A DNA stretch of 27,027 nt, from positions 1 to 27,027 of the forward strand of contig JAEOSI010000003.1 of assembly GCA_016840425.1 (NCBI GenBank). The letters are read 5' to 3'. The notes beneath the pieces are model-generated. The model was given only the letters and a program-made list of their open reading frames with translations, searched no databases and was not told the origin of the DNA. Origin of the DNA: Candidatus Wukongarchaeum yapensis (GTDB lineage Archaea > Asgardarchaeota > Wukongarchaeia > Wukongarchaeales > Wukongarchaeaceae). Positions 6,701-24,612 of the stretch are shown here, piece by piece. Each line of letters opens with the position of its first letter. The stretch's first letter is position 1. The position numbers and the translations under genes were made by a program.

Positions 6701-7510
6701 ATGAGAAGCAATAAGGATGAAAAGATTTTGTGCGGAAAATATCCGTGTTTGGATCCTGATTATGGCAGTTTTTCGGAAGAAGATGATGGAAGACTATCTT
6801 GGTCTTGTGAGCGGTGTAATTTAAACCACAGATTAGGGGAGGAAGTGGAACGATTTAACTATTCGGATTGGGATGTTCTTTCAGAAATCAAGTCCTTAAG
6901 ACAAAAAAAGGTGTCTGGACATCTTATCAGCCAAGTAATGAATTATTTGAAGGGTCTTCAAGGCATAAATCATGTCGTGGAAGTTTCCACTATTGGGGAG
7001 AGGGAAGAAATACTTCGAAGGGAAATGGAGGGAGAAAAGCACGTCTTAAAGGGGGTGGCACGCTCTTATAATTTAGGGCTTAGAAAATGCTTAACCCGCG
7101 ATGTAGTACTTATTTTGAGCCACGACTTATCTTTTAGGGGGCCATGTATGCCTACAGTGATCCTGGTAAACGATAAGGAAATAAAGGGGCATGAAATCGT
7201 TCGAGAAGAAGATTTAAAACGGTTTGCCTTGAAGGGGAAAAAATATGCTTTTCTCGGCAGAAGATTTGTGGTTTATAATGAAAGATTCATTTTTAAAGAA
7301 CTAGGCCCGCATAATTCCTTGTTTGTTTTTCCTCCTTTACCCTTCCCTGAACTTGAAAACGTAAGAGGAGTTGTTGATGTTGTTTCAAGTAGTCCAAACT
7401 TTGAGGCAGATACATATATAAGGACGATTCTATTGCCCAACCTAAACATTCCAAAAAAACTAGCCTTGATCCTAGCAGGGTTTAATCATTCTCCCTGTTT
7501 CCTTTTTTGA
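6701..7510 (+). CDS. Unknown protein; N-terminal degenerate cysteine-rich small (zf-like) domain plus an uncharacterised archaeal domain
   Basis: 269-aa ORF 34 nt after cbiA. YPC...G..SWSCERCNLNH resembles the cobamide-associated Cys-rich small domain. The C-terminal part has HD.SFR.P, PPLPFPEL, VVSSSP and ILAGFN. Confidence 0.7.
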   Translation: MRSNKDEKILCGKYPCLDPDYGSFSEEDDGRLSWSCERCNLNHRLGEEVERFNYSDWDVLSEIKSLRQKKVSGHLISQVMNYLKGLQGINHVVEVSTIGEREEILRREMEGEKHVLKGVARSYNLGLRKCLTRDVVLILSHDLSFRGPCMPTVILVNDKEIKGHEIVREEDLKRFALKGKKYAFLGRRFVVYNERFIFKELGPHNSLFVFPPLPFPELENVRGVVDVVSSSPNFEADTYIRTILLPNLNIPKKLALILAGFNHSPCFLF

Positions 7511-9434: not shown

Positions 9435-10328
9435 TCATCTACTGCTCTGTCTTTTGGCATGTTCAAGTAACGCTTGAGGAGGGGTAGAGGTTTTGCTTTG
9501 AATTAAGGAAAATATTTCTTTCTTTGTAGAAGTATACGCCGCTTTTCCAGCACAGCAAATAGGAATAACATTATAAGATTCTGTTTTTTCGTTATAGCTT
9601 ATTTCTACTTCAATATCATATACATCTCTTATGTTGTCTATGGTAAGAACATCTTCAGCTAGACCTACCGAATATATTTTACCCAACTTAAGAAGCATGA
9701 ACTTATCGCAATATCGACTTGCTAAATTGAGGTCATGAGTTACTAAAACTACCGCTAAATTATTCTTTATGGCTAATTCCCTAATCAACTCCAATATTTC
9801 TAATTGATGATTTATATCCAAATGTAGTGTTGGTTCATCCAGCAATAGTACTTTTGGTTCCTGTGCTAACGCCCTAGCAATGATTACACGTTGCCTCTCA
9901 CCCCCACTAATTTCGTTTATTACTCTATTGGCAAGATGCTGAGTACTAGTAACTTTCATAGCATTTTTAACAACTTCTAAATCGTCTAATGTTTCTTTAC
10001 CGAATCTACTACGTAAATGAGGCATTCTACCCATTAAAACTATATCAAGAACAGTAAATGGAAAAACTATTACAGATTCCTGTGGAACAACGCCGAAATT
10101 TTTTGCAATCTCTTTTCTATCAAACTCACATATATTTTTGCCGTCAATAAGAACAGTTCCCACTTTTGGTTTCAATATCATACTTATACATCTAAGAAGT
10201 GTTGACTTTCCCGATCCATTAGGGCCGATAACGCCTACAACTTCTCCTTCGTTCACCTCAAAAGTTATTCCTTCCAATGCCTTAACGCCGTTGTAACTGA
10301 AACTAATACCATTTATATTCAGCTTCAT
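9435..10328 (-). CDS. btuD: Corrinoid/Fe-siderophore ABC importer ATPase (BtuD-like)
   Basis: GPNGSGKST, GVVPQE, VLMGR.PH, ISGGERQRV.IARALAQEP, LLLDEPT and HDLNLA..YCD. Confidence 0.85.
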   Translation of the reverse strand: MKLNINGISFSYNGVKALEGITFEVNEGEVVGVIGPNGSGKSTLLRCISMILKPKVGTVLIDGKNICEFDRKEIAKNFGVVPQESVIVFPFTVLDIVLMGRMPHLRSRFGKETLDDLEVVKNAMKVTSTQHLANRVINEISGGERQRVIIARALAQEPKVLLLDEPTLHLDINHQLEILELIRELAIKNNLAVVLVTHDLNLASRYCDKFMLLKLGKIYSVGLAEDVLTIDNIRDVYDIEVEISYNEKTESYNVIPICCAGKAAYTSTKKEIFSLIQSKTSTPPQALLEHAKRQSSR

Positions 10329-10329
10329 T

Positions 10330-11436
10330 TTACCACCCCATTAATCTCTTCCTGCTTCTTAATAGATATAAGAAGAAAGGTGCTCCTAGAACAGCAGTAA
10401 TTACTCCCACAGGAAGTTCTGTGGGCTGAATTATTGTCCTTGCTAATGTGTCCATCCATATCAAGAATATCGCTCCTACTAATCCCGATGATGGTAATAA
10501 AATGCGATGGTCTGGGCCTACAAAAATCCTCATAATATGAGGTACTATGATGCCTACAAACCCGATGATACCACTCACTGAAACTGCAGCCGCAGTTGTT
10601 AATGTTGAAAAAACCAAAACAGACTTTTTAACCGATTCCACATTTACACCCAGATTTAAAGCATGTTCCTCTCCCAACAACATGAGGTTTAGCTCACGAC
10701 TATAGTACAATGTACCCACAATTCCTAGGAGGATTAATGGGAGAGCGATATATACTTTATTCCAACTGCTAGCCCAAAATCCACCCAACAACCAGATTAT
10801 GAGGCTATGAAGCTCCTCGCCGGCAATATATTGCAAAAAGGCTACCATTGCCGAAAAGAATAACCCAACCGCAATACCTGCAAGTAAGAGGGTTTCTGTA
10901 GGTACTAATCCTTCAATCCTTGCGATATTGTAAACCAAAAATATCGCAATCAACGCGAAAATAAAAGCCATAAATGGAATTGCAAGAGAACCTTTCACAA
11001 AACTAAAGCCCAATACGATGGCTACGGCCGCTCCAAAAGCAGCGCCTGATGATAGGCCGAGAACATACGGTGAAGCTATAGGGTTTCTAAGTAAGCCTTG
11101 CATAGCACAGCCTGCAACCGCCAGTCCCGCACCAACCAATCCCGCCAATATAACCCGTGGTAACCTGACTTCTAACACTATTATCTCGTAGGTATCCGGC
11201 CAAGATTGAGGAAAATGAAACAATATTTTGAACACAGTGAGTTTTGGGATATCTACTGGGCCAACTGCAAGAGCAAGAATGAATGTTAAAATAAGCCCGA
11301 TTGATAAAGAAAAAATCGTTAAAAACCAGCGTAAATATTTCTTGGAGAAAAGAGCATCCATATCAATTTTTTCTTTTTCTTCAGTTCCATAGTCACTAAT
11401 TCCATACCTACCTATTATGTGCTCGCTTTTTCTCAT
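10330..11436 (-). CDS. btuC: FecCD/BtuC-family ABC permease
   Basis: VRLPRV, QGLLRNP.ASPY.LG.SSGAA.GA, LGEE.A..LGV, GIIGFVGI.VPH and ELPVGVITA.LGAPFF. An alternative start lies at ATG 11361. Confidence 0.88.
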   Translation of the reverse strand: MRKSEHIIGRYGISDYGTEEKEKIDMDALFSKKYLRWFLTIFSLSIGLILTFILALAVGPVDIPKLTVFKILFHFPQSWPDTYEIIVLEVRLPRVILAGLVGAGLAVAGCAMQGLLRNPIASPYVLGLSSGAAFGAAVAIVLGFSFVKGSLAIPFMAFIFALIAIFLVYNIARIEGLVPTETLLLAGIAVGLFFSAMVAFLQYIAGEELHSLIIWLLGGFWASSWNKVYIALPLILLGIVGTLYYSRELNLMLLGEEHALNLGVNVESVKKSVLVFSTLTTAAAVSVSGIIGFVGIIVPHIMRIFVGPDHRILLPSSGLVGAIFLIWMDTLARTIIQPTELPVGVITAVLGAPFFLYLLRSRKRLMGW

Positions 11437-11593
11437 TATATGACCTCAATACGCTCCTATACAGGGTCTACCTAATGTTCAAAAAAAGATGTAGATTGAT
11501 AAGATGTTTTTGCCAATTATCATGTTTGTCGTGTGTAGGTTTTTATGATTACCAGTATAGTATCGGTGTTTTCTCATTGCCCTTGCTTTATCG

Positions 11594-12592
11594 TTAATTT
11601 ACTGAAATACCATGCAAAATTGAGGTTAAACCCGAAACCAAAGAGGTTGGCTCTGAGAACAGGCTTGGGTGGAACCAGTAAGCAAAATATTCTATTCCCA
11701 GTACAGTCCTTGGGTTAGGGCTAATCCAGTCTACCTTGACTGTGTAAATCCGGTCATTCTGGACTGCATCTATAGCACCCCATCCGTCTCTAGCTTTTAC
11801 TTCTTCTATTGATGTAATATGTGAACCCCCCATTTCCTCTATTAACAAAATTACTTCAGGGTTCTTGTTAATGATATATTCGCTGTTAAGGATGGGGTTT
11901 CTCAAGGGTTCATCGCCTGCGATGTTAACTCCTCCGGCCATGAATATCAATTCATTTACGGAGTTCGGACCCCCTACCGTCATCAAGTCGGTCCCTACTT
12001 CAATGTATACCCTTGGTCTTTGGGTACTATTGAGTTCATCTGTTATGGCTGTTACAGCATCCGCTCTACTCTGCATATCGGCCACAAGAGCTTCAGCTTC
12101 GGATAATTTATCGACGACCAATCCAATTACCAGAATGTTATCCAGAATTCCATTAAAAGAAGCAGGGTCGAAGTATATACAGGGGATTTTATCTTCAATA
12201 GAGGATAACGCAGTTTCTGACCAATACCACCCCATTATTACATCGGGTTCTAACCCTATGATCATTTCTATATTGGGGTCCATTCCTCCACCGACATCTT
12301 CTGGGAGATCATTTTCCACTTCCGGTGGATAAGTACTATATCTATCTCTGCCTACAAGTTTATCCTCTGCACCTATTGCGTATAATGTTTCTGTGACTGA
12401 AGGACTCAGTGATACTATTCTTCCTGCGCTATCAGAGAGAGTCACCGTCCTTCCAAGATCATCGATTATTTTGATTTTTCCTTCTTCTTCGCCTTCCTCC
12501 GTTAGCGCATTACTCAGGAGGTATCCGCCACCAAATGCAACACCTATTAGTATGACTATTACTATCCACATTCTGAGTTCTTGCTTTTCCAA
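11594..12592 (-). CDS. btuF: Corrinoid substrate-binding protein (BtuF-like) with N-terminal TM anchor
   Basis: DDLGRTV, RIVSLSPSVTETLYAIG, NIEMIIGLEPD, EYIINKNPEVI, AV.N.RIY and PNPR. TTG start with AGGAGG 10 nt upstream. Corrinoid specificity is inferred from context. Confidence 0.82.
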   Translation of the reverse strand: MEKQELRMWIVIVILIGVAFGGGYLLSNALTEEGEEEGKIKIIDDLGRTVTLSDSAGRIVSLSPSVTETLYAIGAEDKLVGRDRYSTYPPEVENDLPEDVGGGMDPNIEMIIGLEPDVIMGWYWSETALSSIEDKIPCIYFDPASFNGILDNILVIGLVVDKLSEAEALVADMQSRADAVTAITDELNSTQRPRVYIEVGTDLMTVGGPNSVNELIFMAGGVNIAGDEPLRNPILNSEYIINKNPEVILLIEEMGGSHITSIEEVKARDGWGAIDAVQNDRIYTVKVDWISPNPRTVLGIEYFAYWFHPSLFSEPTSLVSGLTSILHGISVN

Positions 12593-12658: not shown

Positions 12659-12702
12659 ATAGGTTGGTTAACCTACCTATATAGGTTATTTAACCTGCTC
12701 CA
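12659..12702. promoter_or_regulatory. Tandem 22-bp palindromic operator-like sites
   Basis: ATAGGTTGGTTAACCTACCTAT (12659-12680) is immediately followed by the degenerate ATAGGTTATTTAACCTGCTCCA (12681-12702). Both lie between the btuF TATA box and its start. Confidence 0.75.
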
Positions 12703-12719
12703 CGTTGACGACTTGGAAG

Positions 12720-12734
12720 TATATAAACTTTACG
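12720..12734 (-). promoter_or_regulatory. BRE/TATA promoter of btuFCD
   Basis: Minus strand reads CGTAAAG-TTTATATA (TATA at 12720-12727), about 130 nt upstream of btuF. Confidence 0.6.
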
Positions 12735-12855
12735 TAGTACTATATTTGTAGTACGCTTATCCTATGGTGCCAAGAGGAGGACAAAACTTTACTTATCGCT
12801 ATATTTCTGTCCTCTTTTTCCGGATTTCTAGCTCTTTAAAAAATTTGGGGAATTA

Positions 12856-15800
12856 TTACAATTTTTCTTCGATTGTTGCTTCTATTTGCAGGTATGCTCG
12901 TTTGAGGTTTTCTTTCATTTTTTCATCAGTTTCCCAAAGTCCTCGTTCAATAGCTTCTAAAAGCTTTTCTATGATGTTCATCAAAGCATAAGGATTATGT
13001 TCTTCGAAAAATTCACGCATCTCCTCATCAAAAACGTACGTTTCTGCGATTTCGTCAAACATCCAATTCTCTATTATCTCGCTTGTAGCTTCCCAAAAAT
13101 AGATGTTATCAATGTATTTTGAGAAGGCGCCAGCGCCAGTGTAGCCGTGTTTTTTCATACCCTCTATCCATTTCGGGTTTATTACTACAGTCCTGAAAAC
13201 AATAGTTGCCTCTTCTTTTACACTTCTCGTTTTAATGCTTTCCAAGTCTGTGGTGTCGCCTTTAAAGGATTTAGGGGCTTTTCCGCTGTAAACCTTTACG
13301 GCGGCGATCATGCCTCCATGGTAGTCTGCCCAATCGTCCGCTTCAAAGATGTCCCATTCGTGACTGTCTTCATTTTTCACAGTAACCTCGATTTTACTCA
13401 ACCTCTTGACAAATTCTTCAGGGGATTTCAAACCATGCTTATTTTTGCCGTAGACATAAGATCCCCAGGTGACGTAGACTTTTGCAAGATCTTCTAAAGT
13501 TTCCCAGTTTTTTTGTTCTAATACTTCAGCGATTCCGGCTCCGTAGCTTCCAGGTTTTTCTCCAAAAATCCGGTATAATGATGTTTCTTTAGCCTCTTTT
13601 TCGGTCATGCCTTTTTCTATTTTCTCCGCCATTTCTTCTATGAAATGTTTTTTTATAAAGTTCAACTCTTCAGGTTCATCCAAGGTTGCGACTAATTGGA
13701 TTGCTTCATCAAGTAGATCTACAAGGTTTGGGAATGCGTCTCTAAAAAATCCACTAACCCTTAGTGTGACATCAATCCTTGGTCTTTTCAACTCCTCTAA
13801 AGGTATAACTTCTAACCCGATAACATAGTCTTTTTCATTATACTTCGGTTTCAACCCTAATAAGTAGAGAATTTCCGCTATATCTTCTCCTTTGGTTCTC
13901 ATTATTGGAGTGCCCCATACTACCATGCCTAAAGATTCGGGGTACTTTCCTGTCTCCTCTAAAACCCGTTTTAACAGATCATCTCCCATCTGTTTGCCGG
14001 CCATATAGGCAGCAAAAGTAGGTATTTCTCGGGGATCACAAGAGTAGAAGTTTCTGCCTGTAGGCAGAACGTTTGTGTTTCTTGTGGGGCATCCGCTTGG
14101 GCCTGCCGGGATGTATTGGCCTTCAATGCCTCTTAAAACGTTTTCGATCTCTAAGGTCACTAGTTCTAGTTTAGGAAGCACGATGTCTACAACGTGTTCT
14201 AAGATCTGCTGTATTTTTGGGGTTATTTTGAGGGTTTTTAGGTTGCTGGTTTCTTCTTTTTTAAAGCCGTGTTGGTAAAACTCTTTTAAAAGGCTTAATG
14301 AGAGGTTGTTTACTTCGTCTAAGAGTTGCGCGTTCATTTTGCCGAACTTTTCGTTGAAATTATCTATTTTTAGAATCTCTTTATAATCGTACCCTAAGCA
14401 TTCTGAAACACCTTCTCTTAGAGAGGGTACGTTTCCGTCAGCTGTTTTCATTATGGTGAAAACCGTTTCTACGAGCTTATCACCTTCTAAAGGTTGTCCT
14501 AAAACGTGTAATCCGTTATTTATCTCCCTTTCTTTAATTTCATACAGGTAAACGTGTAACTTTTCTAAAAAATCTTCAAAAAGCGAAAGATCAGCACCGT
14601 TTTCATTCTCAACTATGGCTATATTTTTCGCCTTTAAATCGTCTGTTAGTTTTAACTCTTCCACCATCTCAACTATGATTTTTTTCAAGGGGGGAATCCT
14701 TTTTTCGTCCACCTCTTTTGCCTCATGATATTCCTCGATGGATCTTTCGAGGCGTGAAAGGTTCTCGTAGAGGTCTGAAAAAGTCATGGGCGGGATCATA
14801 TGGTCCACGATTGTTGCATAACTTCTACGTTTCGCTTGGGTTCCCTCGCCAGGATTATTAATGATATAGGGATAGATGTTTGGAAGTTCCATGCAGATGT
14901 CAGGATAACAGTCACAAGAGAGACCGAAGCCCTTCCCGGGAAGCCATTCAAGGGTTCCATGTTTACCTACGTGTACTAGTACGTTTGCCTTGAAAACGTC
15001 TTTAACCCATTTATAATAAGCTATATAATGGTAGGGAGGGGGTAGATCAGGGTCATGGTAAACACTTGAGGGAGCCGCACCATACCCCCTAGGAGGTTGG
15101 AGTCCTATGAAAATATTCCCATTTGCAATCCCAGCAAATATCAAAACGCCGTCATAGTTGAAAAATTCTCCCGGAACTTCTCCCCAGTGCATCTTTAACT
15201 CCTTGCTTACTTTTGGAGAGAGTAAATTGAACCATTTCTCATAGTTTTCGCGTGTCGCGCGCCCTATTGTTTGTTTTAAATGTTTTTCTGTGATGAATCT
15301 CTGATCGCCTGTTGCGCATTCTGTTATTTTGTTTATAAGCTCTTCAGGGTTTTCTGGTATATGTTCTATGGTGAAGCCGCGTTCCTTCATGGCTTTTAAA
15401 ATGTTTATCACGCTTTGAGGAGCATCTAAGCCGAAAGCTGAACCGATTAAATCATTTCTCGGCGGGTAGTTGTGAAAAATTATAGCTACTCTTTCGTCGT
15501 TATCCGGTTTCTTTTTCAGTACAGCGTATCTGATAACCATTTGAACGATTTTTTCCATCCTTTCTTCGATAGGTTTTAACTTTAGTCTGTTTGTTAGATC
15601 CAAACTTTCTCTCGATAATTCTCGTGGTCTTCCAGCTAGGGGGAAATGGATTATTAGCCCGTCAAACTCGGGCATTACTGCGTTTATGATTACGTCAAGG
15701 GGGTTTAATCCTTGTACAGAATTTCTCCATTCCTCGATAGATCCTGTGGTGATTATGCCTTGCAATACAGGCACATTAAGTTCTTCCAAAAATGTCGCTT

Positions 15801-16602
15801 TATCTTCAATTAGGCTGGATGAAAATTGCATTTTGAAGAAAAAGGAAGTTGTATTAATTATTATATCAACTAGGGGTTTGTTTTCTTGGTAAAAATATTT
15901 CTTGATGGATTTTTCTATGCCTAAAGAACCAAACTCGTTTGGTGAAGCAAAAAATAGGGGAATAACATTAGCATCTGCTTCTTCAACCTTTTCAATTAAA
16001 TGGTCTATAAAGTCCAAATTATTAGAGAGCCAACATGTTCTATAAAAAAGCACGCCAATGGTAATCTTAGATGGGGAATAATTTTTATTGTTTAGGAGGT
16101 AATCTTCCAATTTTTCAAAATATTTATTTTTATAATAGATTCCTTGCCAAGGCATGCTTTCAGGTTCTTCATAGGGGACACTTTGGTCTGAAAACCGATT
16201 TGAGAGAAAAAGTAAAAGATTTTCGTAATTTTTCTCCCCTCCAAGGGCTAAATACTTAATAACTTCAAGCCTTATTTCATTAGGAACAGTAGAAACTTTA
16301 TCCAGTTCAGGCTGACTATCACCAATGGTAGGCAAAGGTATGAACGGCACATTGTAATTTTTTAGATGGGATGCAAGGGCATCGAAGAAAGGGCAAGCAT
16401 CTTTCCCTCCCATAAGTTTTGTGAAGACCACTGATGCTTCTTTTGTAAATTCGAAAAACTCTTCAATTTGCGCCTCTGTACTCACTACGTTAATAATTTT
16501 GAACTCTATACTAACCTTATCTTTTAAGGAGGAGAGAATATGGTTGAATATTAGATTATCATCCAGTGTCGAGGAAACAAAACCTATTTTAGCCAAGGTC
16601 AT
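12856..16602 (-). CDS. cobN: Cobaltochelatase large subunit CobN
   Basis: 1248 aa with MPEFDG, IGSAFGLD, LQPPRG, H.GKHGTLEWLPGK, YPYIINNPGEG.QAKRR, LPTGRNFY, RPRIDVT..SGFFRDAFP and NPKWIEGMK.HGY.GA. Confidence 0.95.
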   Translation of the reverse strand: MTLAKIGFVSSTLDDNLIFNHILSSLKDKVSIEFKIINVVSTEAQIEEFFEFTKEASVVFTKLMGGKDACPFFDALASHLKNYNVPFIPLPTIGDSQPELDKVSTVPNEIRLEVIKYLALGGEKNYENLLLFLSNRFSDQSVPYEEPESMPWQGIYYKNKYFEKLEDYLLNNKNYSPSKITIGVLFYRTCWLSNNLDFIDHLIEKVEEADANVIPLFFASPNEFGSLGIEKSIKKYFYQENKPLVDIIINTTSFFFKMQFSSSLIEDKATFLEELNVPVLQGIITTGSIEEWRNSVQGLNPLDVIINAVMPEFDGLIIHFPLAGRPRELSRESLDLTNRLKLKPIEERMEKIVQMVIRYAVLKKKPDNDERVAIIFHNYPPRNDLIGSAFGLDAPQSVINILKAMKERGFTIEHIPENPEELINKITECATGDQRFITEKHLKQTIGRATRENYEKWFNLLSPKVSKELKMHWGEVPGEFFNYDGVLIFAGIANGNIFIGLQPPRGYGAAPSSVYHDPDLPPPYHYIAYYKWVKDVFKANVLVHVGKHGTLEWLPGKGFGLSCDCYPDICMELPNIYPYIINNPGEGTQAKRRSYATIVDHMIPPMTFSDLYENLSRLERSIEEYHEAKEVDEKRIPPLKKIIVEMVEELKLTDDLKAKNIAIVENENGADLSLFEDFLEKLHVYLYEIKEREINNGLHVLGQPLEGDKLVETVFTIMKTADGNVPSLREGVSECLGYDYKEILKIDNFNEKFGKMNAQLLDEVNNLSLSLLKEFYQHGFKKEETSNLKTLKITPKIQQILEHVVDIVLPKLELVTLEIENVLRGIEGQYIPAGPSGCPTRNTNVLPTGRNFYSCDPREIPTFAAYMAGKQMGDDLLKRVLEETGKYPESLGMVVWGTPIMRTKGEDIAEILYLLGLKPKYNEKDYVIGLEVIPLEELKRPRIDVTLRVSGFFRDAFPNLVDLLDEAIQLVATLDEPEELNFIKKHFIEEMAEKIEKGMTEKEAKETSLYRIFGEKPGSYGAGIAEVLEQKNWETLEDLAKVYVTWGSYVYGKNKHGLKSPEEFVKRLSKIEVTVKNEDSHEWDIFEADDWADYHGGMIAAVKVYSGKAPKSFKGDTTDLESIKTRSVKEEATIVFRTVVINPKWIEGMKKHGYTGAGAFSKYIDNIYFWEATSEIIENWMFDEIAETYVFDEEMREFFEEHNPYALMNIIEKLLEAIERGLWETDEKMKENLKRAYLQIEATIEEKL

Positions 16603-16709
16603 TGATCAAATACCCCCTAAAAGTAAATTGAGCGAATTATTCACAACTATCAAAAATGTGAAATTAACAATGATTTCGAAATTTTAAACGAAGAAGAATA
16701 TGAGGAGGA

Positions 16710-18824
16710 TTAGGGCTGATTAAGTGAAAAAATATCGTCTAATAAGCTTCGCTCAAAAGAAACGATCGATGTAAGTTTTTCAGGTTCTAGAGAATCAACA
16801 TGATAATATTTAGCGGCACTCTTTTCAGCAAATTCTTTAATTAAATTGAGCCCGTAAAACCTTTTATCTTCTGTATCGATGATTATTGTTCTAATTAAAT
16901 CCTTTTTTAGCTGTAAAGCGCATTTGTCTAGATCTTTTAAAACATCATTAAAAAGGGCTACGTTGCCTTTTCCGTCTGTAATAAGAACCATCATCGGTAT
17001 GACTCTGTATCCTTTTAATAACTCCGTTTTAATCAACTCTATACCTTTAACTATTCCGGCGGGTAAAGGTGTTTTCCCGCCAGTCGGAAGTTCTTTAAGA
17101 CGTTTAAGCGCTAATTCAACGCTTTTAGTTGGGGGTAGTATTACTTCAGCTTTGTTGCCTTTGAACATAATCATTGCAACTTTATCCCTGCGTCGATACG
17201 TATCGTTGAGGAGAGAAAATATGGCTCCTTTTACGGCGATCATCCTATTATTTACGCCCATGGAACCACTTGCGTCTACAACAAACATGATTAGAGATGC
17301 TGCTCTTCCTTCCCTCACTTTTTCTCGAAGATCAGACGAGTGTATATCTATTTTCCCCTTTTTAAAAGAGTGGGTTACAGCGGCTCTAAGCGTGGCATCT
17401 ACTGCAATATCTTTTACCTTACCTGTTGGAATTCTAGGCCTAACATATTTTCCACGAGAAAAGGTAGATATCGATTTCAGCCTTCTACCATTACATGGCC
17501 TCAATGAGCGATCTTTTCTCCAGCCTAGTATTTTTTGAGCGTCTCCAATGGGAGGACCTATTTCGAAAACTTTATCGATATCGGTAAAACCGTCAGCTGG
17601 ATGCTTTTCCTCTGATTTTTCGTCATATTTTTCTTTTCCTCTGTTTGGCTTTTCTTCTCCTTTTCCTTCTTTCTTCGTTTCTTCTTCTTCTTCTTCTTTT
17701 TTCTTTTCATGGTCTGGATTTTCTGAATCGTTTTCAGGCTGATTAGGTGGAGGGTTGTTTGGGTTTCTCTGAGTTTTAGGGGGTTGTTGTTCTTTTGCTT
17801 TATTAAAAGCTTCTTCAAGGGCTTCTTTGCTTATTTCTGGTTCTTCGAAGGGTTTTTTCCTCATCCTATGGCCTAAAACAAGCTCTAGGGCTTCTTTGAC
17901 ATCGCTTTCTTTTACTTCTGTTCTACCGTTAAACGCTGCTATTGTTTTTGCTGTTTTCACGGTAATAATGTCCGCCCTGTGACCTTCCGTACCGAGGGCT
18001 ATACAAACCCAAGAAATTTGGCGTAAAAGATCTTCAGAGATGGTAATGCTTGGAAGTAAGCTTTTTGCCTTCTTTATCTTTTGAACTAGCTCTTTTTGAG
18101 CACTTTCAAAACATTTCTTAAAAGCCCACGGACCTGCGTCAAACTCTTCCCGGAGTTTAGCTACCTCCATTCTTTGTTTTACGTCTTTAATCCCCTCAAC
18201 TTTAACACTGAGACCAAATCTATCAATAATTTGAGGCCTTAACTCTCCTTCCTCAGGGTTCATAGTTCCTATGAGAAGAAACTTGGAAGGGTGACTGACT
18301 GAGATTCCTTCCCTTTCAACGATGTTTACTCCCATGGCGGCAGCGTCGAGTAATAGGTCTGAGATGTGGTCTTCAAGCAAATTAACTTCGTCTATGTAGA
18401 GTATGCCTCTATTTGCTTCTGCCAATATGGCTGGTTCTAACGCTTTTATTCCCTCCTTGAGGGCCTTTTCTATGTTAAGAGTACCTACAACCCGATCCTC
18501 AGTAGCGTTTATTGGCAAGGTAACCAAGGGCATTTTTCGCTTTCTAACCGGGAGTTTTTCCCTAGATTCGTATCGTTTTTGGCATGATTGACACATTTCT
18601 TCTATATTGTGTGGGTTACAGTTGAAAGGACAGTCCGCTACAACCTCTATTTCTTCTAAGAGGTCTGTTAAGGCCCGTGCAATTGTGGATTTGCCTGTCC
18701 CTTTCTCCCCTCTGATTAAAACACCGCCTATTTTGGGGTTAATAGCGTTTAGTATCAGAGCTTTTTTCATCATTTCTTGGTCAACAATCGCGACAAAGGG
18801 GTATATAGGACGATCATAACTCAT
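16710..18824 (-). CDS. chlD: ChlI/ChlD-type chelatase subunit (AAA+ domain, acidic linker, vWA); likely CobN partner
   Basis: [44 protein letters not shown], Pro/Glu/Lys linker, and vWA with VDASGSM, TGGKTPL and ITDGKGN. ATG 18824 follows AGGTGG; the track start is 18863. Confidence 0.9.
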
Positions 18825-18936
18825 CTTATTTTTCCACCTTTTGATCGGTATAGAAATGTCCAAGAAGAAATATTTTCTAAATTAATGGAGGGGGAGGATT
18901 CTCACTGGCTTTTAGTCTTTTTTATCCACAGTTTTT

Positions 18937-18958
18937 ATAGGAAGGATAACCTACCTAT
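18937..18958. promoter_or_regulatory. 22-bp palindromic operator-like site
   Basis: ATAGGAAGGATAACCTACCTAT, located between the TATA at 18985-18992 and the chlD start. Confidence 0.75.
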
Positions 18959-18984
18959 ACTTCTAGACAAAATGCGTTAAAGTA

Positions 18985-18992
18985 TTTATAAA
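18985..18992 (-). promoter_or_regulatory. TATA box for chlD-cobN
   Basis: TTTATAAA preceded on the minus strand by purine-rich AAGAAAGA. Confidence 0.55.
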
Positions 18993-19128
18993 TCTTTCTT
19001 CAAAACTAGAAACGTTACTTAAAGTCTAATAGCAGGAATAATAACCAAGCTATTGAAAACTATGAAAAAAACACATACTAAGGAATTATGCGATATTTTT
19101 ACGGTCAATCACGTTTTTTTTTTGATAT

Positions 19129-19150
19129 AAAAGTAGGATAACCTTCCTAT
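19129..19150. promoter_or_regulatory. 22-bp operator-like site with degenerate left arm
   Basis: AAAAGTAGGATAACCTTCCTAT, about 48 bp upstream of TTTTATAA (19199-19206). Confidence 0.6.
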
Positions 19151-19279
19151 TGCTTTAGAAAGGATTTCCTACTTAACTTTAAATACGTAATTAGAAGCTT
19201 TTATAAGGGCGTGTAGAGACATTTTGGAATGTGATGGTTTTTATCATCACGACTTTAGGAGGAGGGAAGCGAATGACTA

Positions 19280-19477
19280 TTGGAAAGTTTTATTTCCTCA
19301 TGCCTTCAGGGAAGATTAGTTGACGTATACAGTGGAGATGGAGCTTGGTTCCACAGTGAAGTCTTCAGCTGTGTAGACGGAGTACTAAGTCTTAAAAGCG
19401 GTATCGCCTATATTAATGTTGCAGTAGAGAAGATCATAGGCATTTGGGGGACTTGTAAAGAAGAATACGAGAAATGA
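19280..19477 (+). CDS. Small beta-rich Sm/LSm-like protein (resembles the methanogen MM0924 family)
   Basis: MESFI..LQGRLVDVYSG...F..EV.SC.DGVL.L....V.VEKIIGIW pattern. AGGAGG at 19257-19262 and TATA at 19199-19206. Family assignment is from memory. Confidence 0.65.
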   Translation: MESFISSCLQGRLVDVYSGDGAWFHSEVFSCVDGVLSLKSGIAYINVAVEKIIGIWGTCKEEYEK

Positions 19478-19564
19478 GAATTGCCGAAGTAAAAGTAGGT
19501 CATGCTACTTGTTCTTAAGGAAATTCTGAAGATATTCGCTAGTAACAAAAAATAGAGATAATAT

Positions 19565-19635
19565 GTGGTGGATGGTTTCATTGAAAATTCACCTAACTGC
19601 CTGTCAAGACATCCATCACCCACCGCTGTTTTTTT
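19565..19635 (+). terminator. Stem-loop followed by a T-run
   Basis: GTGGTGGATG (19565-19574) pairs with CATCCATCAC (19610-19619), 10 bp including one G-U. T7 at 19629-19635. Confidence 0.4.
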
Positions 19636-19778
19636 GACTGTTAAGCTTTTAGGTCTTTTCGCCCTTTGTTCTTTGAGAAACGTTTTTTGAGGAAGCAGGT
19701 TTTGGAAGCTTTTTATAATATAAATAAGGATATCTGATGTTTCAAAGAAATTTTTGGTCTTTTGAACCATAGGTTTTT

Positions 19779-19800
19779 ATAGGTGGGATAACCTGCCTAT
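19779..19800. promoter_or_regulatory. 22-bp palindromic operator-like site
   Basis: ATAGGTGGGATAACCTGCCTAT upstream of the ABC-2 ATPase. Confidence 0.72.
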
Positions 19801-19974
19801 ATTCCTAGACAAATAGTAACATATCTAAAGTGCTTCTCTTTGAGTTTTGAATTTAAAAATCAAAAGCCAGAAATAGGAAAGGCAAAAAAAGAAAACTTTT
19901 GTTTTTTTATAAGAAGATTTTAGCAGATTTGCTTGGATAACTGGTTTGAAAAGTTTGAAGGGGTTTTGCCGTAA

Positions 19975-20979
19975 ATGATTAGTGATGTTAATAGTGTTAG
20001 TATTAGCGAAGGTGAGGAGGATAAGGAGGATGTGATTGTTAGTGTGGAGGGACTGGTTCACAAGTATGGAGATTTTACCGCTGTTGATGGGGTTTCTTTT
20101 ACTGTTAGGAGGGGGGAAGTTTTTAGCCTTTTAGGGCCTAATGGTGCCGGTAAAACCACCGCTATTAATGCTTTGATCGGGTTACTGAAACCTACAAGCG
20201 GCGAGATTTACTTGGATGGTATAAACGTCATTAAGAACCCGGAAAAGGTAAAGGGCAGCATAGGAATAGTTTTTCAAGAGACCATTTTGGATAGAGAAAT
20301 GACTGTTTGGGAGAGCATGGAGTTTCACGGCAAACTTTACAAGATACCCAAAGAGGAAAGGCATGAAAAGATATGGGAGCTACTTGAACTTGTTGAACTG
20401 AGTGAGAAGGTAGACGAGATAACGAGAAGGTTGAGCGGGGGCATGAAGAGAAGGCTTGAAATTGCTCGAGCTTTAATGACTGAGCCTACGATCTTGTTTT
20501 TAGATGAACCTACTTTGGGCCTTGATCCCCAGGGCAGAGTGCTTATTTGGGAACAGATTAGGAAGGTAAACGAGAGGGGCACAACAATGTTTCTAACAAC
20601 ACATTACATGGAAGAAGCTGATCGATTGGCAGACAGGGTTTTCATTATGGATCATGGTAAAATCCTTATTTCTGGAACTCCTGAAAGGCTAAAGGACAAG
20701 CTTGGGAAAGATGTTATCTTTCTTTATTTAGCGGAGAAAGAGAGGGCGAGGGAAGTTTTAGAGGGATTTGATTTTATCAATGAAATTGTTGAGTTTGATA
20801 AAGGATTAGAGATCGTGCTTAACGGTTCAGGGGTTCCTTTGGCGCCGAGGATTATGGAGACTTTGGATAGTTTGAAACCTAAGTTAGCTGTAGATGGCGT
20901 GAATATAAAGAGACCGTCGCTTGATGATGTTTTCCTGTATTTTACAGGCAGAAAAATTAGGGAAACTGACATATCCTGA
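19975..20979 (+). CDS. ABC exporter ATPase (DrrA/NodI-like)
   Basis: GPNGAGKTT, GIVFQE, LSGGMKRRLEIARAL, LFLDEPTLGLDP, LTTHYMEEAD.LADR and C-terminal PSLDDVFL..TG. Confidence 0.92.
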   Translation: MISDVNSVSISEGEEDKEDVIVSVEGLVHKYGDFTAVDGVSFTVRRGEVFSLLGPNGAGKTTAINALIGLLKPTSGEIYLDGINVIKNPEKVKGSIGIVFQETILDREMTVWESMEFHGKLYKIPKEERHEKIWELLELVELSEKVDEITRRLSGGMKRRLEIARALMTEPTILFLDEPTLGLDPQGRVLIWEQIRKVNERGTTMFLTTHYMEEADRLADRVFIMDHGKILISGTPERLKDKLGKDVIFLYLAEKERAREVLEGFDFINEIVEFDKGLEIVLNGSGVPLAPRIMETLDSLKPKLAVDGVNIKRPSLDDVFLYFTGRKIRETDIS

Positions 20980-21040
20980 CTTATTTTTGAGTTTTCAGTT
21001 GATTGAAAGATTTTTTGTCTCTTTAAAGGAGGTTTTTATT

Positions 21041-21871
21041 GTGCATGGGGCTTGGACAATTTTTTGGCGGGAAATGGTAAAATATAAGAGAAGAATGATG
21101 ACCCTTTTTGTAACGATTGTTCAGCCTGTTTTATGGATTTTATTATTTGGTGTTGCTTTAGGCTCTACTATTCCAGAAAAGGAAGGTAGCATTTCTTACG
21201 TGAACTTTCTTATTCCGGGGATCATTGGTTTAAGCATCCTTTTCAGTTCGTTGTTTGCAAGTTTTAACGTTTTGCTCGATAAAGAGTTTGGTCTTACGAA
21301 AGAGATTTTAATGAGTCCTACTTCGAGAAATCAGGCTATGGTAGGTTATAGTTTGAGCGGTTTGGCTAAAAGCTTGATACAGGCCTTTGCCGTACTATTA
21401 TTAGGCGTTTTTTTGATCGTATCCGGTAGTGAGAAACTCGTATTGTTTGGAGAAGGTGAGGGTTTTTTTGACACTTTTATATGGTTTTTAACATTTGTTC
21501 TTATAATCGTCATTTTTTCCTTTGGGTTCTTATTTATGGCTATGGCTATTGCGGCTAGGATGACTAGCCATGGGGCATTACAAGCCCTTACGACTATGCT
21601 GACTTTACCACTATTTTTTGCATCCGAAGCGTTGTACCCGTCGAGGGAGTTCCCGTTTTGGCTTGCAATAATCGCCAAGATAAACCCTTTAACCTATTGT
21701 GTTAGGGTTCTCCAGATCTCCCTTTTGGGCTATGATTTCAGGTATGGTGACAATCCTCCATTTCATTACGAGTTTGCCGACATCGTTACGGGATTTATTA
21801 TGGTAGGACTGTTTACTCTTATTATGTTTTATCTTGCAATAAAATCGTTCCAAAAAATAAAACTATTTTAG
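21041..21871 (+). CDS. ABC-2 type exporter permease (DrrB-like)
   Basis: IFWRE, QPVLWILLFG, YVNFLIPGI, D.EFG..KEIL.SP, FF.S.ALYP and INPLTY.V with multiple TM segments. GTG 21041 follows AAGGAGG; the track start is 20921. Confidence 0.92.
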   Translation: MHGAWTIFWREMVKYKRRMMTLFVTIVQPVLWILLFGVALGSTIPEKEGSISYVNFLIPGIIGLSILFSSLFASFNVLLDKEFGLTKEILMSPTSRNQAMVGYSLSGLAKSLIQAFAVLLLGVFLIVSGSEKLVLFGEGEGFFDTFIWFLTFVLIIVIFSFGFLFMAMAIAARMTSHGALQALTTMLTLPLFFASEALYPSREFPFWLAIIAKINPLTYCVRVLQISLLGYDFRYGDNPPFHYEFADIVTGFIMVGLFTLIMFYLAIKSFQKIKLF

Positions 21872-22000
21872 CAAAGATCGAAAACTATGAACTCTCCCAA
21901 TCCAACAGTAGAAATAGGTATAAGGGTTTAAGCGTTTTAAACTGTTTGGTTAATTTTAAGGCTTGAAGTTGAAGTTTTGTTTTTTGGTTGGTTTTTGGTT

Positions 22001-23044
22001 ATGGATGTTCTTTTTTTTACTGAGTGGAATGGTATAGCACATTTATTGTTTGTCGAGATGGCTATAATAGGGTTGGCTGTTTTTCTCGATCTTTTGTTCG
22101 GGGAGCCCCCTTTGAAGGTTCATCCTGTGGTCTGGATGGGTGCTTTGATTGATAAGCTAGGGAAGTTTTTCAGTACAAGTGTTCCTGAGAAGCAGAGGAT
22201 GAGGGGTGTGTTTCTTGCTTTAACGTGCATATTTTTTGTGGCAGTTCCTGTGTTTTTCTTGTCGATTCTTATGTGGCGGTATTTGGATATTTGGAGTTAT
22301 ATAGTGGTTTCTGCTTTTCTTTTGAAAGCTACTTTTGCTGTGAGGTGTTTGAGGGAGCATGTTTACACAGTGAGAGATTGTTTATATGAGGGGGATATTG
22401 AGGGGGCTCGGGGTATTCTTCCGGGGTTGGTGGGCCGTGATCCCAGTAAACTCGGTGAGAGGGAGATTATTAGTGCGACTATAGAGTCTACAGCGGAAAG
22501 TACTGTAGACAGTTTTACTTCTCCTATTTTTTATTATGTTCTTTTTGGGCTTTTGGGTGCTTATGTTTACCGTATGATAAATACTTTGGACAGCATGGTG
22601 GGGCACAAAACTGAGGAGTATGTTCGTTATGGGTGGTTTTCTGCTAAGATAGATGAGTTAGTAAATTACCTCCCTTCACGCATTACGTCGATTTTCATAG
22701 TTTTATCAGCGTTTTTAAGTGGGTATGATTGGCGTAAAAGTTGGGGAATATTGAGAAGAGATAGGTACAGTCTTGAGAGTAGGGTCGGGGGTTGGAGCAT
22801 GGCCCCTATGGCAGGAGCCCTTGGGGTGCAACTTGAAAAGCCGGAGTTTTACACCCTTGGTGATCCTAAAGAAGAGATGGCTGTTGAGCATATAACGCGA
22901 GCGTGGAGGGTTACTTTCGTGACAATAATATTGTTTTTCGTGATGGTGGTTCCTATAATCCTCCTATTAATGGACCTCTTTGACTTATATTTTTATACTC
23001 ATCTTTTTTCGCCATTATCTGATGAACCCTTATGGCTATTTTAA
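22001..23044 (+). CDS. cbiB: Adenosylcobinamide-phosphate synthase CbiB
   Basis: D.LFGEPP..HPVVWMG, LVGRDP, IES.AES.VD..TSPIFY, YRMINTLDSMVG, FSAKIDE..NY.PSR and MAGALGVQL.K..Y.LG. ATG 22001 is preferred over 21977. Confidence 0.94.
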   Translation: MDVLFFTEWNGIAHLLFVEMAIIGLAVFLDLLFGEPPLKVHPVVWMGALIDKLGKFFSTSVPEKQRMRGVFLALTCIFFVAVPVFFLSILMWRYLDIWSYIVVSAFLLKATFAVRCLREHVYTVRDCLYEGDIEGARGILPGLVGRDPSKLGEREIISATIESTAESTVDSFTSPIFYYVLFGLLGAYVYRMINTLDSMVGHKTEEYVRYGWFSAKIDELVNYLPSRITSIFIVLSAFLSGYDWRKSWGILRRDRYSLESRVGGWSMAPMAGALGVQLEKPEFYTLGDPKEEMAVEHITRAWRVTFVTIILFFVMVVPIILLLMDLFDLYFYTHLFSPLSDEPLWLF

Positions 23045-23052
23045 CGTTGTTT

Positions 23053-24612
23053 TCAACTTTCCATTTTCCTGGCTCTTTGGTGCATTTTTCTCCAGTATAT
23101 GTCTGAGCCAAAGTAGGCGGTTCCTGTGATGATTCCCGTAATTACGAGGGATAGGATGCTGTTATATAGGTCCTTTTCAAAGGGCGAAAGGATCAAAACA
23201 GATGAAACAACGCCTAGCATTACCGTGAGGGCTATTTGGAAGAAATTTGAACGGATTTGTTCATAGCTTTCAATGGCGCTGTCTAAAAGTTCTAGTTTAT
23301 CCATGATTGATTGAAACATGTTATTGATTAGCATTGTTTCTTTTCCGTGTTCAAGACGGAGATGCGTCATTCTGTGTCCAACTATTTTGATGGTGTAAAA
23401 CTCGTCAAGAGCTTGCCCCATGAACTCTTTTAAGACCATTATTTCGCCTGAACCCATGTCTGCGATGTTCTTTCTGGTGAGGAAAAAATCGAGAAACCTG
23501 AGCAAAAATCGTTGCATTTGCAAGAGTTCAAGAGCGGAGAAGCCTGGGATTATTTCCAGTAAGGTTTCATATTCAACGCTGGTTCCGTTTTCTTTTGCTT
23601 TTTCGGCGAGAATTTCTTGGGATTTTTTGGATAAAAGTAGGATCGTGGAACCTATGGTGCTGAGATATGCTATGTCTGATCTTTCGCTTATGTTTGGACG
23701 TAGAAGGTCCTCAGTGATATCGTCATTTATTACGTCATATTCGACGTCTTTCATATGGGCCATGATTTGATAGAACTGTTTCGGGTGGCTATCAACTATT
23801 TCTATGGCGTTTTCCTTGTCTTCTACTTCTGTTAAAACTACGACGTAGGGATATATAATATAAGGTTCGTAACGGAGGCTTTCTGAAAGTTTTTCGCTTG
23901 ATGAAAAGCGCGATTTGTTGACCCGATTAATTACGGATGAAACGTAGTACCAAACGAGTTCTGAAAAGCTTTTATTCTTCATATTTATCGATTTTTTACC
24001 CTTTTCTTTCATAGCTTCAACGACTTTCGTGAGCTCTTTGTTCAAATTGGAGTACTCTTCAATAAGTTGTATCGGGGCCTTTATGTTGAGGGTTTCTTCC
24101 TCGACTGAGGGTATGATTTGGAGCTCTGCCAGTTTTCTAGAGGTTACTGGTTCTTCAATATCCATCCAAAAGCTTAGCACTACTGCTCCATACCTGTTTA
24201 ATGTAACGTAGACATCTACATCTGCGTAGTTCTCAAAGCCAAGAACCAGAATTTTTATCCCTTGAAGGCGGAGGCGTGCGTATTGACCGCTTTCGAAATA
24301 TTCCTCATCTAAGTACAAGAAATCTGACTTCTGAAAAGCTTCAAGGTGTTCATAGGTGTCATCTTTGATTTCTTGGCTTTCTCCTCCTTCTTGAATACCT
24401 TTTATTTGGATTTCTCCAACTCCCTCGTCCCTTCTCTCTGGCGGCAAGTATGAGAGCAGTCCACGACATATAGGCGAATCATACAAGTTTTTTGCCGCCG
24501 GTTTTATGTCTTCAATTGAAGAACCTAAGTCGAACGTTACTTGCCATATGATTTTGGATCTTGAGAAAACAAGTTTATCTTCCCCTTGATTAGAATTAGG
24601 AAAAGAAGCCAA
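23053..24612 (-). CDS. CorA-like architecture membrane protein (large soluble domain, long helix, two C-terminal TMs) without GMN motif
   Basis: 519 aa. The hydrophobic segments FFQIALTVMLGVVSSVLILSPF and SILSLVITGIITGTAYFG follow a heptad-like helix. TTG start after AAGGAAGG. Confidence 0.6.
   Translation of the reverse strand: MASFPNSNQGEDKLVFSRSKIIWQVTFDLGSSIEDIKPAAKNLYDSPICRGLLSYLPPERRDEGVGEIQIKGIQEGGESQEIKDDTYEHLEAFQKSDFLYLDEEYFESGQYARLRLQGIKILVLGFENYADVDVYVTLNRYGAVVLSFWMDIEEPVTSRKLAELQIIPSVEEETLNIKAPIQLIEEYSNLNKELTKVVEAMKEKGKKSINMKNKSFSELVWYYVSSVINRVNKSRFSSSEKLSESLRYEPYIIYPYVVVLTEVEDKENAIEIVDSHPKQFYQIMAHMKDVEYDVINDDITEDLLRPNISERSDIAYLSTIGSTILLLSKKSQEILAEKAKENGTSVEYETLLEIIPGFSALELLQMQRFLLRFLDFFLTRKNIADMGSGEIMVLKEFMGQALDEFYTIKIVGHRMTHLRLEHGKETMLINNMFQSIMDKLELLDSAIESYEQIRSNFFQIALTVMLGVVSSVLILSPFEKDLYNSILSLVITGIITGTAYFGSDIYWRKMHQRARKMES

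Follow-up and report, generated by a model that had tools for sequence, protein, structure and literature searches.

A 22-bp palindrome as the predicted operator of a cobalamin regulon in an Asgard archaeon

The DNA analyzed here, referred to as the window, is the whole 27,027-nucleotide contig C69 of a metagenome-assembled genome (MAG) of Candidatus Wukongarchaeum yapensis (G000; 2.16 Mb, 277 contigs, 38% G+C, 92% complete). The window carries four copies of a 22-bp palindrome ahead of genes for cobalamin (vitamin B12) uptake and synthesis, and this palindrome is a real and specific promoter operator of a cobalamin regulon. We propose, with a probability of roughly 0.7, that it serves as the operator of a trans-acting repressor of the Hodarchaeota (Asgard) cobalamin regulon, the likely reader being a protein of the DUF4443 family and the likely signal a corrinoid. 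The genome was compared with that of the sister species (G001), the GTDB class comprising three species or genomes in total, as well as with other Asgard genomes and with metagenomes.

Sites and architecture of the palindrome

A preliminary description of the window, made from the letters without database searches, had reported four 22-mers and a degenerate tandem copy, all of which were found letter for letter at the positions listed below. When up to three mismatches are allowed, the pattern ATAGGNNGGWTAACCNNCCTAT matches only the four 22-mer places in the window; 0.02 matches are expected by chance, and none of 100 dinucleotide shuffles equaled the observed count. All four sites are intergenic. 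According to Pfam, the genes behind them are btuF-btuC-btuD, a chlD-like gene with cobN, a small DUF6897 gene, and an ABC-2 ATPase (abcA) and permease followed by cbiB. In the list, scores refer to the position weight matrix (PWM) described further on.

12659..12680: strong 22-bp operator (predicted) before the minus-strand operon btuF-btuC-btuD; 33.7 bits; its end lies 66 nt before the btuF start codon
12681..12702: weaker single-type site, ATAGG-N8-CCTGC, adjoining the strong btuF site, ~18 nt past the btuF TATA box and at the expected transcription start
12721..12728, minus strand: putative TATA-like box of the btuF promoter, TTTATATA, as read from the sequence
9435..12592, minus strand: corrinoid uptake operon of btuF (Peripla_BP_2), btuC (FecCD) and btuD (ABC_tran), by Pfam
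12856..18863, minus strand: chlD-like AAA+/VWA subunit gene (16710-18863) and a 1248-codon open reading frame (ORF; 12856-16602) read as cobN
18937..18958: 22-bp operator (predicted) before chlD-cobN; 34.1 bits; begins 24 nt past a TATA-like box at 18985-18994 (minus strand)
18932-18939, plus strand: second TATA-like run, overlapping the other end of the chlD site
19129..19150: 22-bp operator (predicted) before the DUF6897 gene, with one outer arm degenerate; 28.5 bits; kept in the paralogous copy at C192:1735-1756
19155..19176: weak second site, 4 bp beyond the DUF6897 operator; 10.6 bits; its paralogue at C192:1761-1778 is a perfect TAGG-N8-CCTA
19280..19477, plus strand: gene of the small DUF6897 protein (65 aa, TTG start), a regulon member only in this strain
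19779..19800: 22-bp operator (predicted) before the ABC-2 ATPase, ABC-2 permease and cbiB genes; 32.2 bits; its upstream end coincides in part with a TATA-like run, TTTTTATA (19774-19781)
19975..23044, plus strand: ABC-2 ATPase (19975-20979), ABC-2 permease (20921-21871) and cbiB (21977-23044)

The window as a whole is a cobalamin island. It holds cbiG, two tetrapyrrole methylase genes, cbiC, cbiD, an aminotransferase gene, a cbiA-type amidase gene and cbiZ, and continues with btuD, btuC, btuF, the 1248-codon ORF, the chlD-like gene, DUF6897, the ABC-2 ATPase and permease genes, for which the preliminary description had put forward a role in export but which simply sit ahead of cbiB, and cbiB itself. 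The reading of the 1248-codon ORF as cobN comes from its size, its position and the preliminary description, not from a domain scan. One further predicted frame, orf120 (19408-19770, minus strand), was judged spurious-looking. Rfam gave no match to a cobalamin riboswitch at E<=1 in the window, and no DNA-binding domain was found among the window proteins; both results agree with the preliminary description, which had reported no riboswitch here and had placed the gene of a trans-acting factor outside the window.

A PWM was built from the four window sites and used to scan the whole assembly, with the reversed genome as control. Six sites scored between 26 and 34 bits, the next best reached 16.3 bits, and the best score in the reversed genome was 19.1 bits. 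All six strong sites precede cobalamin or DUF6897 genes, which bears out the claim that the motif is shared by promoters of cobalamin uptake, cobalt-chelatase and synthesis genes. Two of the six were new: C178:2849, directly next to a TTTATAT box and 42 nt ahead of cbiX-hemA-hemL-hemC and a gene of the uroporphyrinogen-methylase type (cobA), and C192:1735, which precedes a second DUF6897 gene. The shorter form TAGG-N8-CCTA occurs 20 times in the genome, and seven of its eight intergenic occurrences lie at cobalamin or DUF6897 loci. These single-form sites include a perfect 16-bp palindrome, TAGGTTAATTAACCTA, 71 nt before cobQ (C178:13450), a site that follows a TATA box by 5 nt and precedes the opening gene of a long cbi operon by 62 nt (C178:2764), the tandem copy at window position 12681, and C192:1761. 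Genome-wide, the sites are restricted to cobalamin promoters and DUF6897 loci, and the same genome uses both the single and the doubled form, with about ten sites, one per cobalamin transcription unit.

One additional sequence, ATAGGTTTGATATCCTAA, lies beside a TATA-like run at C117:6738-6755 (L058:2009-2026), 128 bp past a corrinoid-protein gene and ~590 bp before a gene for an Mrp/NUBPL-type ATPase. It may be an extra regulon site, with no clear target.

The consensus of the 11 copies in G000 and G001 is ATAGG-(T/A)N-GG-WT-AW-CC-NW-CCTAT; its GG and CC pairs vary little or not at all, with one change among the 11 copies. The 22-mer holds four TAGG-like words, two direct and two inverted, and can be parsed as two TAGG-N8-CCTA palindromes offset by 4 bp (positions 2-17 and 6-21), one made of the outer-left and inner-right arms and the other of the inner-left and outer-right arms. 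In all 11 copies the spacing is 12 bp between outer arms, 4 bp between inner arms and 8 bp across registers, and every 22-mer contains TAGG/CCTA arms at 8-bp spacing twice over. Judged by its letters, the 22-mer doubles a simpler putative operator, TAGG-N8/9-CCTA, which other Asgard archaea have ahead of B12 genes. Among the 11 sites, changes at the variable positions 6/7 and 16/17 do not compensate for one another by pairing, and this, together with the nearly invariant GG and CC pairs, points to protein contacts rather than to selection for an RNA hairpin.

TATA boxes were identified by eye, and transcription starts were deduced from them. Among the sequencing runs listed with this DNA, none is recorded as RNA. 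At cbiX the TATA box directly abuts the site, at the cbi operon it lies 5 nt ahead, and at chlD it ends 24 nt ahead. The btuF box ends ~18 nt ahead of the weak copy and 39 nt ahead of the strong copy, whereas at cobQ the site is found just ahead of a TATA-like box; at abcA and DUF6897 the upstream end of the site shares letters with a T/A-rich, TATA-like run. Read in this way, the predicted layout is that of archaeal repressors that block the recruitment of TBP/TFB or polymerase, in line with the repressor geometry proposed in the preliminary description from the chlD and btuF sites.

Strain variation and occurrence in related archaea

Sites 2 and 4 of the window are duplicates within a direct repeat that flanks an inserted DUF6897 cassette, a point the preliminary description had missed. 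The elements concerned are as follows.

18910..18972, plus strand: left copy of the ~62-bp direct repeat, containing the operator
19752..19814, plus strand: right copy of the ~62-bp direct repeat
19004..19659, plus strand: core of the DUF6897 cassette, 79% identical to C192:1614-2285 and absent from related strains

In related-strain contigs from three runs, position 18958 is joined to 19854, with one operator between chlD and abcA, and these contigs show that a single operator in this place is the ancestral arrangement. In that arrangement the site is flanked on either side by TATA-like boxes that point toward each other, so that one bound protein could close both operons. The sister species has both repeat copies, 238 bp apart, without DUF6897. 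In one related strain the DUF6897 ORF has been lost, and site 3 carries four changes that include both outer arms; site 2 (18937-18958) is unchanged in related strains while its flanks vary. Taken together, the chlD/abcA region (window 18900-19860; G001 L048:13600-13893) exists among close strains with one operator, with two operators 238 bp apart, with two operators ~840 bp apart around the DUF6897 cassette, and with a cassette from which the ORF has been deleted. Operator duplication has, to judge from these arrangements, drawn the DUF6897 cassette into the regulon, and the rearrangements show how a gene cassette can join a regulon by duplicating its operator. The operator was not found before the DUF6897 genes of other Asgard genomes.

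The second DUF6897 copy (C192:827-3549; L065) has as neighbors a gene of the phage-integrase family, one with a PIN domain and a small HTH gene, and the same contig continues with a form III RuBisCO gene and a gene of the ribose-1,5-bisphosphate-isomerase type.

The sister species keeps all sites. Its assembly has the counterparts of C178 and C69 joined, so that the cbiX site falls between two divergent transcription units, the cbiX operon and the long cbi operon; the later genes of the long operon are those that open the window. The cbiX operator of G001 is present twice, through a 66-bp tandem duplication, between cbiX-cbiNQO-hemA and cbiM plus a gene for a His-rich NicO-like transporter. 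In genome G002, no chlD or btuF match was found.

In other Asgard lineages the single form recurs. ATAGG-N8-CCTAT, often paired, precedes btuF in two genomes of family f21 (G138 and G118) and three of family f9 (G029, G116 and G124). In family f9 it also stands 4-16 bp before a corrinoid adenosyltransferase gene in two genomes (G029 and G116), and before genes for a CbiQ/ECF transporter and an ECF S component. The counts of ATAGG-N8-CCTAT in five other Asgard genomes equaled those of the controls; this form is too degenerate for genome-wide enrichment, and only its contexts are informative. The variant TAGG-N9-CCTA occurs before btuF-like genes in G018, G038 and G008 (also g16), and these sites are ambiguous because btuF-like transporters can carry iron chelates, in which case they could be iron boxes. 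The nearest BtuF homologues, at 57% identity, belong to 'Thermoplasmatales archaeon ex4484_30' and to a bacterial contig, and no such motif was found with them.

Two of the f9 genomes, G029 and G116, encode a protein of 361-365 aa without a Pfam match, divergent from btuF and with its own ATAGG-N8-CCTAT (L189:2709-3806, L190:2540-3625). It is a candidate member of an Asgard B12 regulon.

A metagenome scan with the exact 22-mer pattern returned 83 stretches. One of these, L138, comes from the same organism, and the remaining ones were set aside as terminator-like perfect hairpins or as an unrelated high-GC element. The latter is a conserved block around ATAGGCAGGWTAWCCTGCCTAT, with flanks conserved on both sides, in L070, L072, L073, L075, L076 and about 20 more high-GC contigs; it is unrelated to the operator and may be a structured RNA or a conserved terminator of one bacterial lineage.

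The predicted repressor and competing explanations

Most likely, a protein repressor that does the job of the bacterial B12 riboswitches docks at the 22-mer. In the scheme we propose, in which repression, the reader, the two-dimer mode and the effector are what we infer, a repressor bound on or just after the TATA-like box would stop the transcription machinery from assembling. The regulon would comprise btuFCD, the chlD-cobN chelatase genes, cbiX-hemA-hemL-hemC-cobA, the long cbi operon, cobQ and ABC-2/cbiB, plus the cobalt uptake genes in the sister species and the two DUF6897 genes in this strain. On the two overlapping operators, shifted by 4 bp against each other, two dimers could sit on different sides of the helix, much as DtxR/IdeR occupy their nested boxes, and the likely reader would be the DUF4443 (PH0730-like) protein encoded on contigs C245 (1110-1709) and C159. 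The gene set (uptake, cobalt transport, chelatases, early tetrapyrrole synthesis, late amidation and adenosylation) mirrors the B12-riboswitch regulons of bacteria, so that corrinoid feedback would explain all members, whereas a cobalt or iron signal would account for only some. A corrinoid is thus the probable signal; of the corrinoid- or metal-responsive factor put forward in the preliminary description, the corrinoid half fits the gene set and the metal half is less consistent with it.

At about even odds, the best candidate for the reader is DUF4443, an uncharacterized winged helix-turn-helix (wHTH) protein resembling PH0730. The genome has two copies, 85% identical, each beside the gene for the RFC large subunit; in the sister species the contig ends 53 bp short of the expected position. 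Every twentieth of the 534 representatives of the DUF4443 family was sampled; three contigs were too short, and three of the five informative loci have B12-type uptake genes within 6 kb. At one locus (L257), a 24-bp nested palindrome, ATAGGATAGGATATCCTATCCTAT, lies between the TATA box and the start codon of an ECF-S/DUF4430 operon and has the same nested dyad as the 22-mer with a 5-bp period. At another (L260), two TAGG-N9-CCTA sites lie between DUF4443 and an ECF-S gene, which are divergently oriented. Among Asgard archaea, genus g32 has DUF4443 3-6.5 kb from btuFCD with its operator. The AlphaFold2 model of DUF4443 (mean predicted local distance difference test score, pLDDT, 95.5) matches PH0730 (2P8T), and in structure comparison its wHTH is nearest to the DNA-bound domains of CggR and of DtxR/IdeR/SloR, with PDB entries 1DDN, 2IT0 and 7B24 among the DtxR/IdeR matches. 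The DtxR-like helix of DUF4443 may be the reason why the arms look like IdeR boxes. An alignment of the recognition helices of DUF4443 proteins yielded no specificity code, and a literature search on DUF4443/PH0730 gave one unrelated mention. The proteins of the genome with a B12-binding domain were considered as readers and rejected: they are corrinoid proteins, and no HTH domain was detected in those scanned.

The paired DUF4443 and RFC large subunit genes on C245 and C159 have 85-89% protein identity, which suggests that two related strains were binned in the MAG.

We also considered, as a speculative extension that is possible but that we would not bet on, that DUF4443/PH0730-like proteins are the long-sought B12-responsive repressors of archaea. 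Their DtxR-like winged helix would read the four TAGG-type repeats, and in the present lineage two dimers would occupy a single 22-bp operator in overlapping registers 4 bp apart; lying between face-to-face TATA boxes, the loaded operator would shut divergent operons at once.

Several observations weigh against the proposed repressor and its reader. Alternative, downstream TATA-like boxes at DUF6897 and abcA would put these sites far upstream of the promoter. The exact 22-mer was found only in this genus. The btuF-cobN intergenic region is 282/291 identical (~97%) in the sister species, so conservation there says little and phylogenetic footprinting with this species is uninformative. The DUF4443 genes of the window's own genome are not near cobalamin genes, and neither carries the operator itself. 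Among 30 other Asgard genomes, the 1.5 kb on either side of DUF4443 never included a cobalamin gene; DUF4443 was found in 106 of 151 Asgard genomes, but a BtuF relative in only 19. Two of the five informative family loci lack a B12 gene, and a DUF4443 locus with btuFCD and RACo (L262) has a different palindrome. DUF4443 was not found in G018 and G038 (82-84% complete), in which TAGG-N9-CCTA precedes a btuF-like gene. The C-terminal domain of DUF4443 is nearest to the insertion domain of AspRS and shows no known B12-binding fold, which leaves corrinoid binding unsupported.

That the regulon reports metal supply, the sites being boxes of a metal-sensing repressor of the DtxR family (cobalt or iron), is an unlikely explanation that nevertheless draws on several features. 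The TAGG/CCTA arms and the nested double dyad are laid out as in the IdeR/DtxR box, three DtxR-family proteins are encoded in the genome, the palindrome TTTAGGTTATCCTAAA before a DtxR(FeoA)-feoB operon reproduces the 22-mer's inner dyad, the G001 regulon includes cobalt transporters, btuF-like binding proteins can belong to siderophore transporters, and G018 and G038 have sites where DUF4443 was not found. However, the DtxR genes sit with Feo iron transporters on contigs without a 22-mer, the regulated genes (btuFCD, hemA-hemL-hemC, cbi and cobQ, and the corrinoid adenosyltransferase gene of f9) mirror those of B12-riboswitch regulons, and repressing B12 uptake and synthesis when cobalt is plentiful would make little physiological sense. 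Moreover, no DtxR gene is near the operators in L257, L260, L207 and L208, where DUF4443 is near. We hold it similarly improbable that the sites are a true B12-regulon operator read by another factor, possibly an activator, with DUF4443 unrelated. The lack of linkage between DUF4443 and cobalamin genes in this genome and at most Asgard loci, its distribution beyond that of btuF and the second TATA-like boxes at DUF6897 and abcA would fit such a factor, and its gene could be missing from a MAG of this completeness in 277 contigs. Against this, DUF4443 occurs together with B12-type uptake genes and TAGG-N8/9-CCTA palindromes in independent lineages, the geometry at cbiX, the cbi operon, chlD and btuF is one of repression, and no other DNA-binding gene recurs beside the operators in the loci read.

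Two readings without a DNA-binding regulator appear far less probable. An RNA hairpin in mRNA leaders, acting as a stability, termination or translation signal, would agree with the position of the site after the expected start, and hence within the transcript, at btuF, chlD and probably abcA, and many exact metagenome matches are indeed bacterial terminator hairpins. It is very improbable here, given the missing compensatory changes at variable stem positions, the location of the cbiX and cbi-operon sites between TATA box and expected start and of the cobQ site before its TATA-like box, and the lack of a U-tract past the sites or of an Rfam match. Least probable of all is an origin of the copies as ends or leftovers of some repeated or mobile element, with no role in regulation. 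The repeat around the DUF6897 cassette, absent in related strains, the integrase-family gene beside the second DUF6897 copy and the 66-bp tandem duplication in the sister species might suggest such an origin, but the btuF, cbiX, cbi-operon and cobQ sites have no flanks in common, one operator persists between chlD and abcA in strains that lack the cassette, and all sites are at cobalamin promoters, with arms that recur before B12 genes in other Asgard families. The motif is not a mobile-element end.

The TTTAGGTTATCCTAAA palindrome (C136:1400-1415; L264) precedes by ~70 bp a gene that encodes a DtxR-family protein with a FeoA domain and is followed by feoB. It is probably an iron (Feo) operator, and its TAGG-N4-CCTA corresponds to the inner dyad of the B12 22-mer.

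Relation to known regulatory systems

A binding signal of a hypothetical B12 regulator, the 'CBL-box', was reportedly predicted in some archaea in 2003, when Asgard archaea had not yet been discovered, and calling the present motif undescribed, as the preliminary description did, was therefore an overstatement. Like the CBL-box as reported, the 22-mer is a palindromic DNA signal ahead of genes for cobalamin synthesis and transport in archaea without B12 riboswitches; this likeness is one of description, and the nested 22-bp form and the DUF4443 candidate are not known to be part of the earlier prediction. In these terms, the doubled operator would be the Hodarchaeota variant of an archaeal operator type that was reportedly predicted in outline in 2003. 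Literature searches found no use of the term CBL-box, and for an archaeal B12 regulator or regulon they gave reviews without relevant content.

Archaea are generally held to lack B12 riboswitches. The regulon nevertheless resembles those of bacterial cobalamin riboswitches (Rfam RF00174 and relatives) in placing btuFCD, cobalt transport, the cbi/cob operons and cobN-chlD under one signal, but where the riboswitch is a B12-binding RNA leader, the signal here is a DNA palindrome on the core promoter, and no riboswitch was found in the window.

The IdeR/DtxR box is a 19-bp sequence, TTAGGTTAGSCTAACCTAA, that is bound by two dimers on opposite faces. The 22-mer shares with it the TAGG/CCTA arms and the nested double dyad of four short repeats, as had been noticed in the preliminary description, and the wHTH fold of the candidate reader is close to that of DtxR. 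It differs in spacing, with outer arms separated by N12 and inner arms by N4 rather than arms separated by N9. The gene context of a DtxR box was also not encountered: the targets are cobalamin and not iron genes, and the DtxR genes, with feoB, are on contigs lacking the 22-mer. In addition, DUF4443 has a GAD-like C-terminal domain where DtxR has its metal-binding and dimerization domain.

ThiR is the archaeal regulator of thiamine genes. RbkR, the archaeal riboflavin regulator, is a wHTH protein and a proposed activator (PMC5397151). The predicted system would resemble both in that a wHTH transcription factor replaces a bacterial riboswitch for a vitamin pathway and uses palindromic operators at archaeal promoters; the protein families and ligands are different, and the geometry observed here suggests repression, unlike the activation proposed for RbkR.

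How archaea sense and ration costly B12 has been an open question since the signal prediction of 2003. The present genome offers about ten sites in single and doubled form, as well as a small, expressible candidate protein. If DUF4443 does bind its operators in a corrinoid-dependent manner, about 500 uncharacterized representative clusters would gain a function, and B12 auxotrophy and cross-feeding in sediment archaea could be read from promoters.

Two further proteins encoded in the window, both conserved in G001 or L138, may be mentioned. The last gene of the cbi operon (6701-7510) encodes a 269-aa protein with only a weak match to a Cys-rich 'zf-like' domain, and a 519-aa protein without a Pfam match is encoded past cbiB on the opposite strand (23053-24612).

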